Shown here: positions 20,537-44,958 of the stretch, one piece after another
How positions within the stretch are numbered: the stretch's first letter is position 1
Layout of the letters: the number at the start of each line of letters is the position of its first letter
From: a virus
Virus record (IMG/VR): IMGVR_UViG_3300005002_000001
Direction: 5' to 3' (one strand)
DNA length: 64,000 bases
Notes under the pieces: generated by a model
What the model saw: the letters and a program-made list of their open reading frames with translations, nothing else
Told to the model about the DNA's origin: nothing
The model's database searches: none
Program-made: the position numbers and the translations under genes

Positions 20537-20973
20537 GCGAACCAATTTCAAAGGAACGAGCTCTCCTCATCGGCGTTTCGGCCGTCGCTTTTGGCGTCAG
20601 CACCCTCATGCGGAAGATCTCTATCGAGACGCTGCATCCGTTTCAATTCCAAATAGTGGCTAGCGCTTTTTATGGCCTCATGATTATTCCTTGGCTTCTG
20701 GTAGCCAAGGAAACCGGCCACTCGACCGACTGGAATATTTCTGGTGTCATCTGGTGCCTCATCTGCTCGCTCATAGCGACCCTTGGAGGCGTAATCCTCA
20801 TGTATGCCCTTCGAAGCGGTCATGACACAGGAACCGTGTCAGTTTTGAGCGGGATATCTCCCATTGTCACCGTCATGCTAGCTTTCCTATTCTTGGGAGA
20901 ACAGCCCAGCTTGAGGCAGGGATTCGGAATCTTCTTGGTGCTCGTGGGCGTTGTCATCGCCTCGGGCCGCTGA
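20533..20973 (+). CDS. EamA/DMT-like small membrane transporter (4 TM)
   Basis: four hydrophobic helices; GxxxG-rich C-terminus LVLVGVVIASG typical of single-domain EamA/SMR-like proteins. Confidence 0.5.
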   Translation: MSEPISKERALLIGVSAVAFGVSTLMRKISIETLHPFQFQIVASAFYGLMIIPWLLVAKETGHSTDWNISGVIWCLICSLIATLGGVILMYALRSGHDTGTVSVLSGISPIVTVMLAFLFLGEQPSLRQGFGIFLVLVGVVIASGR

Positions 20974-20985
20974 TATTTAATCGGC
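20972..20985 (+). promoter_or_regulatory. AT-rich start-proximal motif GATATTTAATCGGC immediately 5' of ATG
   Basis: resembles GATATTTAAAGCC found in front of two minus-strand genes; may be a late-type promoter element. Confidence 0.3.
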
Positions 20986-21267
20986 ATGAAGATCACGCTG
21001 GGAGACCTCAAGACCGTCATCCAAGAAGCCTTGGTAGAGACGAGAAACGAGTACGTCGTTCGCGGTGGAAGCGAGATTCTTGTTCGTCGCGAGGATGAAC
21101 CTAAGAATGCCTGGCGCTGGGAGACCTTTCCGAAGGTCCTCTATTTTTCCCCGTCCGAATTGGTACGCAAGCCGAGAGGGCCGACGGACTTACAGAATTA
21201 CGTCTTCAAACGGGATGGCATGCTATATGCCGTCGACGCTCGCCGATTCTATCTGATGCCCGGTTAA
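20986..21267 (+). CDS. protein with shared N-terminal leader MKITLGDLKTVIQEAL
   Basis: N-terminal 16 aa conserved with 21264-21587, 21584-22534 and 27966-28409. Confidence 0.55.
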   Translation: MKITLGDLKTVIQEALVETRNEYVVRGGSEILVRREDEPKNAWRWETFPKVLYFSPSELVRKPRGPTDLQNYVFKRDGMLYAVDARRFYLMPG

Positions 21268-21587
21268 AACGGGATCTTCATCGAAGGCTTCGGGGTCCCG
21301 TGGTAAAACTCGCCGCCGTCTAGACGATCGGTGACTTCGTCAGCTACGTCGAGCATACGTTCTTCGAGCTCTCGGCCGGCCATAGCGACCTGGACGTGCC
21401 ATTCTTTTTCTCCCCCGCGAGCCATAGTCGGATCGTGCGGATCGAAACGATTTTTCATATCGATGATCCAGCTATCGACCATCTTTTCGATGGCCATCTC
21501 GATCGACGGGTGAGGAGCCAGCGTGCTTTCGTCGAGTGCTTCTTGAATGAGGTTCCTCAGATCTTTGATTCGAATCTTCATCGTCAC
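21264..21587 (-). CDS. protein with shared N-terminal leader (MT)MKIRIKDLRNLIQEAL
   Basis: track ORF; coupled to upstream minus-strand gene. Confidence 0.55.
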   Translation of the reverse strand: MTMKIRIKDLRNLIQEALDESTLAPHPSIEMAIEKMVDSWIIDMKNRFDPHDPTMARGGEKEWHVQVAMAGRELEERMLDVADEVTDRLDGGEFYHGTPKPSMKIPF

Positions 21588-22534
21588 TTTCGCTCGATTC
21601 TGCCGGACCTAAAAGCTTTGATAAGCTCTTGCGCGCCGCGGTCGTCCAAAGTAATAGATACGCCATCCTTGCCGATCGACGAACCCGGGCTTAGAGTGAT
21701 GCTCGGCACAGAGGGAGATCGATCCCTGTCTTTGAAAGATTTGGGCTCTTCGCCCCGATAACTACACACTATGCCTTCGAAGCCCGGGCCTATCGAGACG
21801 GGCAGTTTTTTGGACCACCCGGTGCCCGAAGGATTGCCGACTTGAATGCCTTCGACCTCGAGCGCGCCCAGGGCCTTTTGAGCCTCGACCTGCGTGTTGC
21901 CATCAGAAGCGTAGACGTATTCATAAGCGGGCGTATCGCCCTTCGCTTTCATCTCGTGCAGGCTGACTGTGCCCTTGACAGTGGGAGCGCCCGTTCCAAA
22001 TTTAAGCATGACTCCTCTTCCCAGGCGTTTGGGCTCGTCTAGGACTTCAGTGACCTGGGCCTGATCCATCAAGATTTCCATGTCTAGGATGTTGCCTCGA
22101 CGAGGCTCGACGCCCTTCCAATAATCCTCGATCAGGCTAGTGTCGTAGCCGTAATCGTTATCTTTCCAGGAATTTCGGCCGATCTGATCGATCAGTTTGG
22201 AGTCGGTGACGTGCATTTTGCCGATCGGTTTGACGGCATACAGGAAACCCTTGCCGATGAACCTCGATCGAGGATGAAAAGAAGCGAAGATGCAGTTGAA
22301 TCGAGAAGGCAGGTTGGGAAAGTCTCTTTTGCGGACATCCTCCATCTCTCTTTCGTATTGCTTTTTCTGCTGCCAATGCTGTCCCGTCGCTGGATCGACT
22401 TGAGCTGTCAGCACGTCTCCCACTTTGAATCGTTGTGGAGATCGATGATATAGGGTCGCGCCGGCGGAGACCGTGTATTCGAAGAGAAGAGCCTCCCGAA
22501 TCAGCCTTCTAAGTTCTCCCAGCCTTATCCGCAT
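21584..22534 (-). CDS. 316-aa protein with shared N-terminal leader MRIRLGELRRLIREAL
   Basis: track ORF; remainder of protein without recognisable family. Confidence 0.6.
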   Translation of the reverse strand: MRIRLGELRRLIREALLFEYTVSAGATLYHRSPQRFKVGDVLTAQVDPATGQHWQQKKQYEREMEDVRKRDFPNLPSRFNCIFASFHPRSRFIGKGFLYAVKPIGKMHVTDSKLIDQIGRNSWKDNDYGYDTSLIEDYWKGVEPRRGNILDMEILMDQAQVTEVLDEPKRLGRGVMLKFGTGAPTVKGTVSLHEMKAKGDTPAYEYVYASDGNTQVEAQKALGALEVEGIQVGNPSGTGWSKKLPVSIGPGFEGIVCSYRGEEPKSFKDRDRSPSVPSITLSPGSSIGKDGVSITLDDRGAQELIKAFRSGRIERK

Positions 22535-44027: not shown

Positions 44028-44446
44028 GGGCCGAAAAGCTCTTGGCGCAGGCCGTAGCCAAACTGCGGGCCGAACACGAGGAGCTCCTGAAAACGGAGCT
44101 CACGGCTTTTCACTGCGCGATTCTCGTGTCGGGCGGAGCGATCCTGTCCGTCGGTTTCAACAAGCCGAAGGTCAATTCCTTCGTCGCGGTCTACGCTCAT
44201 CATCCTGATGTGCAGACTATCCATGCCGAGATCGACGCAATCCTTCAAGTTCGCCGCAAGACCGATCTGACGGGTTGCAAGATCTACGTTGCCAAACTGG
44301 GACGCAACGGAGAAGTGGGAAACTCCTGCCCGTGCGCCATGTGTCACGAGGCTCTTCACAACTACGGTATCAAGCGAGCGTATTACACCGTCAACGAGAC
44401 TACTTATGCTGTAGAGCGCCTTAGCGGCGAGGAGTGGCCCAAATGA
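44024..44446 (+). CDS. CDA-fold zinc-dependent deaminase (TadA/dCMP-deaminase-like)
   Basis: HAEIDAI ... SCPCAMCHEAL (H-A-E and PCxxC zinc ligands); TTGA overlap start. Confidence 0.6.
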   Translation: MRAEKLLAQAVAKLRAEHEELLKTELTAFHCAILVSGGAILSVGFNKPKVNSFVAVYAHHPDVQTIHAEIDAILQVRRKTDLTGCKIYVAKLGRNGEVGNSCPCAMCHEALHNYGIKRAYYTVNETTYAVERLSGEEWPK

Positions 44447-44607
44447 TCGTGATCGATTTGGTCAATGGTGATGACGTCATTACCATCCCACCAGAAGATT
44501 CTCCGGAAGAGAAGGCGCGCAAGGAAAAGATGCGCCAGGAAGCCCTCAGAAAAATCTTCGAACGAGCGCCTAGGCCTCAACTAGAGATCGTCGAAATTAA
44601 GCGGTAG
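44443..44607 (+). CDS. hypothetical small protein (54 aa)
   Basis: ATGA start; MIVIDLVNGDDVITIPPEDSPEEKARKEKMRQEALRKIFERAPRPQLEIVEIKR. Confidence 0.35.
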   Translation: MIVIDLVNGDDVITIPPEDSPEEKARKEKMRQEALRKIFERAPRPQLEIVEIKR

Positions 44608-44941
44608 AGGGCAATCTAGCCTCGATGACGATGGCCACCAGCGTATTCCCGCTGGGAGGAGCCGCGGTCGGATCGGTCGTCACCCAGTGCTCGTATTGGC
44701 TGGTCGCGACTCGATAGCCACGCATGCGATATTTCTGCGCCACGGCCGCGACAGCTACGCTCGTCGCGGGGAGCGTTTTGATGTCGAAACCGCTAAAATC
44801 CGCCAGCGTATTGCCTTCTCGGATATCGAGATTGCTGACAGGCAAAATGTTTCGACCATCAAAGGAAGCAGGAGTCGGTCCCACTAAGTCGAAAGCACCC
44901 AGTCCGACGAAATTTAAATCAGCGAATTCGTTACCCGCCAT
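44597..44941 (-). CDS. hypothetical protein (last gene of minus-strand structural operon)
   Basis: track ORF. Confidence 0.5.
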   Translation of the reverse strand: MAGNEFADLNFVGLGAFDLVGPTPASFDGRNILPVSNLDIREGNTLADFSGFDIKTLPATSVAVAAVAQKYRMRGYRVATSQYEHWVTTDPTAAPPSGNTLVAIVIEARLPSTA

Positions 44942-44958
44942 GGCTTTAAATATCGAAG
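44942..44958 (-). promoter_or_regulatory. ATATTTAAAGCC motif immediately 5' of ATG (minus strand), overlapping upstream stop codon
   Basis: 17-mer ATATTTAAAGCCATGGC identical to the one at ~22534. Confidence 0.35.

Follow-up and report, generated by a model that had tools for sequence, protein, structure and literature searches.

Why should the same short AT-rich string stand directly ahead of the start codons of otherwise unrelated genes, and what might it do there? The question arises from a window of 64 kb (the whole stretch of DNA analysed here, part of a genome of at least 240–350 kb), in which an identical 17-mer had been described at two loci. Two minus-strand loci do share an exact string; however, it is only a 15-mer. 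The 17-mer ATATTTAAAGCCATGGC has a single exact occurrence in the window, at 44937–44953 on the minus strand, and the sequence at 22530–22546 on the same strand mismatches it at the final two bases, leaving the common 15-mer ATATTTAAAGCCATG at 22532–22546 and 44939–44953. Both ATGs linked to the 15-mer start real ORFs—gene A, which opens with MRIRLGELR, and gene B, which opens with MAGNEF (Table 1). The related versions described ahead of two more leader genes are present as well, both on the plus strand, as GATATTTAATCGGC-ATG (ATG at 20986) and CTACTTAAAGGG-ATG (ATG at 27966). Because the window holds many unrelated exact 15–18-mers, an exact 15-mer is unremarkable alone, and the spacer of this one is unconserved at site B, where the nearest relative has GATT for AGCC. 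The meaningful unit is the core (G/C)A-TAnTTA-A, placed 3–5 nt ahead of ATG or GTG. The bare hexamer TAnTTA was rejected as the unit, being far less specific (25 matches, 7 of them start-proximal).

Table 1. Motif copies, neighbouring genes and the class-1 promoter in the window
Feature	Position	Strand	Description
Site C core, TATTTAA	20974–20980	+	5 nt before ATG 20986
Gene C	20986–21267	+	leader MKITLGDLKTVIQEAL; 93 aa; final gene of plus-strand unit
Second leader gene	21264–21581	-	leader MKIRIKDLRNLIQEAL; directly downstream of gene A, same orientation
Gene A	21584–22534	-	leader MRIRLGELRRLIREAL, then DUF2441 / ADP-ribosyltransferase-like body
Site A core, TATTTAA	22539–22545	-	4 nt before ATG 22534; within exact 15-mer 22532–22546
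Class-1 promoter (putative), TGTAATC-N16-TAGGAT-N6-ATG	22560–22594	+	serves divergent AlkB-like gene 22595–23227
Site D core, TACTTAA	27955–27961	+	4 nt before ATG 27966
Gene D	27966–28409	+	leader MKTFRIKLGDLRKFIREV; 147 aa
Gene B, MAGNEFADLNF...	44597–44941	-	114 aa; no leader; ends minus-strand virion/fibre operon
Site B, TATTTAA	44946–44952	-	4 nt before ATG 44941
TAATTAA	47398–47404	-	8 nt before ATG 47389 of MPKYRG paralogue 1 (46133–47389)

The number of TAnTTAA copies in the window is at expectation (5 on both strands together, against 6.25 ± 2.7), and all five lie 4–8 nt upstream of an ORF-opening ATG. As a control we used 100 heptamers of matched composition, with start-proximal defined as 3–9 nt before a called start; their matches are start-proximal in 6.2% of cases in the window (77/1252) and in 5.9% across four loci (148/2522), as against 5/5 and 14/15 for TAnTTAA. 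For the window alone the binomial p is about 1e-6, or about 1e-4 when corrected for 100 motifs. In the related loci, the start-proximal share is 2/2 in each of L001, L005 and L045, 4/4 in each of L002 and L004, and 1/1 in L046. Away from starts the motif is depleted: a single copy was counted, whereas heptamers with two TA steps averaged 13.0. This was the lowest count among the 100 heptamers tested, and the one copy is really a start site with 9-nt spacing in L001. Both strands contribute (antisense, 0 against 4.2; sense, 0–1 against 4.0), although the loci are partly orthologous and the p-values therefore optimistic. Avoidance on both strands favours a signal at the DNA level.

Could chance plus coding constraint produce this pattern, if TAA stops and AT-rich junctions simply happen to precede the following ATG? 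A stop codon does lie inside three of the five window copies, copy number is as expected, exact 15-mers are common, and site B is simply the codons (GA)T-ATT-TAA, the D-I-stop of 44946–46124 (...FDI*), next to its unconserved spacer. However, the start-proximal fractions stand against some 6% for matched heptamers, at sites A and D the motif is conserved in non-coding DNA, and it recurs in leader genes identified without reference to it; chance is a very improbable account of the class as a whole.

Site A lies within a conserved 60-bp gap between gene A and the divergent AlkB-like gene at 22595, whose class-1 promoter occupies most of the gap. The orthologous sites read CATACTTAAAGCC (L002/3/5), CATACTTAAGACC (L004) and TAATTAGaatttGTG (L006, 40% amino acid identity), and in L006 the motif at gene A is retained though the intergenic region is otherwise unalignable. 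Searches for relatives of gene A found none in IMG/VR (with single-protein patterns) and none in GTDB genomes. Site D overlaps, in the window, the TAA stop of 27137–27961; in L002 and L004 the upstream gene ends about 20 nt earlier, and ccatccTA(c/a)TTAAAGGGATG is still kept as non-coding DNA. The caveat that overlap with stop codons reflects coding constraint is thus borne out for part of site B, with its D-I-stop in a conserved C-terminus; it does not extend to site D or site A. Site C, directly 3' of the TGA that ends the EamA gene at 20533–20973, is identical in L005 and differs by one spacer base in L002 and L003; L004 has a non-leader gene after EamA instead, and the motif is missing there. 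For sites B and C, as for the near relatives generally, an overall nucleotide identity of 80–95% or coding sequence confounds any argument from conservation.

The motif tracks genes that share a leader, M[KR]I.LG[DE]LR..IRE. This leader is an N-terminal amphipathic peptide of about 17 residues that ends I/V-x-E, then A/V, and is followed by a variable cargo domain; an AF2 model predicts it as a separate helix (residues 5–17) before a low-confidence linker. It is common to at least four window genes and to many in relatives, whose bodies are unrelated (an ART-like fold, a PRTase and unknowns). Ten further leader genes, none with a Shine-Dalgarno sequence (SD), came from an unbiased search for the leader coding pattern; TAnTTA(A) occupies the equivalent position in four of them, and a different AT-rich hexamer (ATAAAT, ATTAAT or TAGGAA) in another four. 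TAnTTA is present at -4 to -6 in about two-thirds of the leader genes identified independently of the motif; in the more distant relatives L008/9, L010, L028 and L041 it is replaced or absent. L004 has an extra leader gene, at 19295, which is divergent and leaves only 9 nt to its neighbour's ATG. The sole leader gene in the window without TAnTTAA is the second one, directly downstream of gene A and presumably co-transcribed with it; a purine-rich SD-like stretch takes the motif's place (GAAAG, GGAAAGG or GAGAGG). Leader nucleotide conservation, such as a GGGAGA downstream element, was considered and rejected, as synonymous positions vary freely.

Such an association could also arise if TAnTTAA played no part in expression and were a passive boundary, either the conserved 5' margin or recombination joint of a leader-gene cassette that is duplicated and mobile, or a site recognised by a homing or recombination enzyme. 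Leader genes are gained and lost between relatives (the extra 19295 in L004, the other gene after EamA), they stand at the ends of transcription units, and exact junction identities of 31 nt and 36 nt occur elsewhere in the genome. However, TAnTTA persists among paralogues in which flanks and synonymous leader sites carry only about 0.1–0.5 bit; the spacers (3–5 nt) are unrelated, the upstream flanks unconserved and the leader synonymous sites saturated. The motif also precedes genes that have no leader, namely B, 47389, L006 15865 (171 aa) and L011 15875 (710 aa), and a passive boundary seems distinctly unlikely.

The geometry of the sites bears out a second start-proximal motif class compatible with leaderless mRNAs. 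TAnTTA lies 4–6 nt from the start codon (mode 5), or 6–8 nt when (G/C)(A/C)TAnT is taken as the hexamer; motif-bearing genes have no SD; and 19 aligned sites show no -35-like or other upstream element, with at most 0.34 bit anywhere from -3 to -42. A simple sigma-70 and terminator scan of 19–30 kb found nothing at the sites. The first class in the window has the canonical form TGTAATC-N15/16-TAnnAT-N6-ATG, with TAnnAT 6 nt before the ATG, and looks like the host-sigma type; the geometry of class 2 parallels it. The sixth position of TAnTTA is A rather than T, however, which sets it apart from the canonical TANNNT -10, and it sits about 1 nt nearer the ATG. Our main reading, to which we give a probability of about 0.5, is that TAnTTAA is a -10-only promoter yielding leaderless mRNAs. 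It would act as a -10-type element without a -35, and transcription would start at, or a few bases from, the A/G of the ATG or GTG. The genes so driven would be dispersed small accessory cassettes, each made of motif, leader and variable cargo, in an uncultivated jumbo-phage clade. Because it differs from the canonical class-1 promoters, class 2 is probably served by another, or a modified, form of the polymerase, and hence at a different time.

Gene A and L004 19295, each facing away from its neighbour, need promoters of their own, and both carry the motif. One other candidate at gene A, TACCAT at about -55, was rejected: it is the ATG-GTA codons of the neighbour read on the opposite strand, and no class-1 -35 accompanies it. 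This bears on a rather unlikely alternative in which UAnUUAA, at -4 to -11, is a translation signal in the RNA—an SD-independent ribosome-loading site or enhancer, or a RegA-like repressor operator for a leader-gene regulon. A tight, fixed and short distance to the start, in the SD's place and in genes without an SD, is what such a signal would show, and C, D, B and 47389 are co-oriented with their upstream genes, which makes a polycistronic reading possible. However, gene A and L004 19295 would still need a promoter within 9–60 bp, where there is no other conserved candidate; the downstream leader gene would need the same signal, yet it lacks the motif and has an SD-like stretch; and the absence of antisense copies (about 4 expected) is not required of an RNA signal. 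Still less probable than either the boundary or the translation signal is RNA processing, with a phage or host endoribonuclease cutting at or after UAnUUAA to free leaderless mRNAs from polycistronic precursors. The resulting geometry would be the same as for a promoter, and C and D both sit within arrays of genes on one strand; however, the two divergent genes would again require an upstream promoter, and the antisense depletion would be left unexplained. We know of no nuclease with UAnUUAA specificity.

Is the putative promoter class a late one that includes structural genes, as was first suggested? Among structural-operon genes, the motif stands ahead of 2 of 12 in the window and of none of the 9 others examined in the relative L043. 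In all, 19 of these 21 lack it, a result that largely goes against the suggestion; the motif instead follows the leader-peptide family. Site B and the copy at 47398 have no leader, lie inside an operon and overlap stop codons, one of them with 8–9 nt spacing, so that no promoter is necessary there. Site B is doubtful as a functional copy: L001 has TATTTAAgattATG, L045 has TACTTAAttccATG with the residue changed and the pattern kept, L046 has lost the motif (TACGTAAtcATG), and L047 has none. For this site alone, chance plus coding constraint comes only a little short of an even chance. The first TAA of the 47398 copy doubles as the stop of 47402–50386; the site is conserved in L001, L045 and L046 and absent in L047, and its status is uncertain because its spacing falls outside the 3–5 nt range. 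Here the same explanation is somewhat less probable than at site B, and on the unlikely side. Proteins of the virion operon had no match in Pfam or PHROGs; a PDB sequence search with the MPKYRG and 994-aa proteins returned nothing, an alignment search with MPKYRG recovered only the same IMG/VR relative, and megablast against GenBank phages gave no match. In the relative L047 we observed a T4 gp13-like neck protein.

The comparison with T4 also falls away at the level of sequence. T4 late promoters have the consensus TATAAATA, depend on gp55, gp33 and gp45, and give mRNAs with SD-containing leaders; among others, they serve head-packaged proteins with N-terminal targeting propeptides. They resemble class 2 in being a short AT-rich element in the -10 region with no -35. 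However, the core TAnTTAA differs from TATAAATA, of which the window holds no exact copy, and its one-mismatch matches are at chance (13 against 10.4 ± 3.1) and not start-associated, likewise in L043; unlike in T4, most virion genes here are without the motif.

Parallels also come from leaderless promoters of bacteria. In Deinococcus-Thermus, experimentally validated TANNNT elements lie about 6–7 bp before ORFs, GTG starts are allowed and a GGAG class coexists (PMC12340547); -10 elements that adjoin ORFs and give leaderless mRNA are also found in Actinobacteria, including mycobacteria (PMC4633059). Class 2 shares with the Deinococcus-Thermus type an AT-rich -10-like element that abuts the start, no SD, ATG or GTG starts and a coexisting SD-led class. 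It is class 1 (TAnnAT-N6-ATG), however, that matches the TANNNT type exactly. In class 2, position 6 is A, one further A is conserved and (G/C)A stands ahead of the core; the element sits about 1 nt nearer the ATG, has no -35 and is confined to a single gene family, whereas the Deinococcus-Thermus type stands ahead of a third of all genes. Among phages, most middle and late mRNAs of the Thermus phage phiYS40 are leaderless, according to a review (PMC3594737) that cites Sevostyanova et al. 2007. Like our phage, phiYS40 is large, and it expresses genes other than the early ones from leaderless mRNAs, as may hold for class 2; its leaderless set covers most middle and late genes, structural ones included, whereas most structural-operon genes here lack the motif. 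To our knowledge, phiYS40 promoters are without a -35 element. The promoters of jumbo-phage RNA polymerases (AR9 early, AAATATATATTAT-N6-G; AR9 late, AACA-N6-TA/G; phiKZ late, TATG; PMC5312081) likewise combine a short AT-rich consensus with a start fixed a few nucleotides downstream; however, the sequences are unrelated, and we saw no phage RNAP genes in the available sequence. TAnTTAA is most likely a new variant of the known leaderless-promoter arrangement and not a general late-gene signal.

If it is a promoter, the motif gives a second, non-canonical leaderless class within one phage genome, and how phages time two such classes becomes testable. It would also let one regulon be recognised by a simple sequence tag across a large uncultivated jumbo-phage clade (contigs of 240–436 kb). 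A tentative extension, which we consider unlikely as a whole though not far-fetched, is that motif, leaderless start and 17-residue leader form a self-contained, exchangeable cassette that both expresses and targets its cargo, with a regulon of effectors made at a single time and sent to a shared destination. The dedicated -10-only leaderless class would turn on diverse effectors (ART-like, PRTase and others) together, leaderless initiation would block translation from read-through early transcripts and so enforce the timing, and the N-terminal helix would route the effectors to the capsid for injection, or to another phage-built compartment. The capsid targeting sequence (CTS) proteins of T4, IPI–III and Alt, also carry a short shared N-terminal peptide (PMC9026906). 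As in those proteins, the leader sits on unrelated and poorly conserved cargo; its I/V-x-E end followed by A/V resembles the T4 gp21 cleavage context (L/I-x-E), and the ART-like fold of gene A is found in T4 Alt. However, the leader, at about 17 residues, has a different sequence, and the likeness concerns the proteins rather than the DNA motif. Should the promoter reading hold, motif and leader together could be used to mine metagenomes directly for candidate packaged or injected effectors, which are likely to be enzymes of host takeover or anti-defence. In genome annotation, each of the two motif classes pins true start codons for these phages. The same phages also encode a homologue of the major vault protein.

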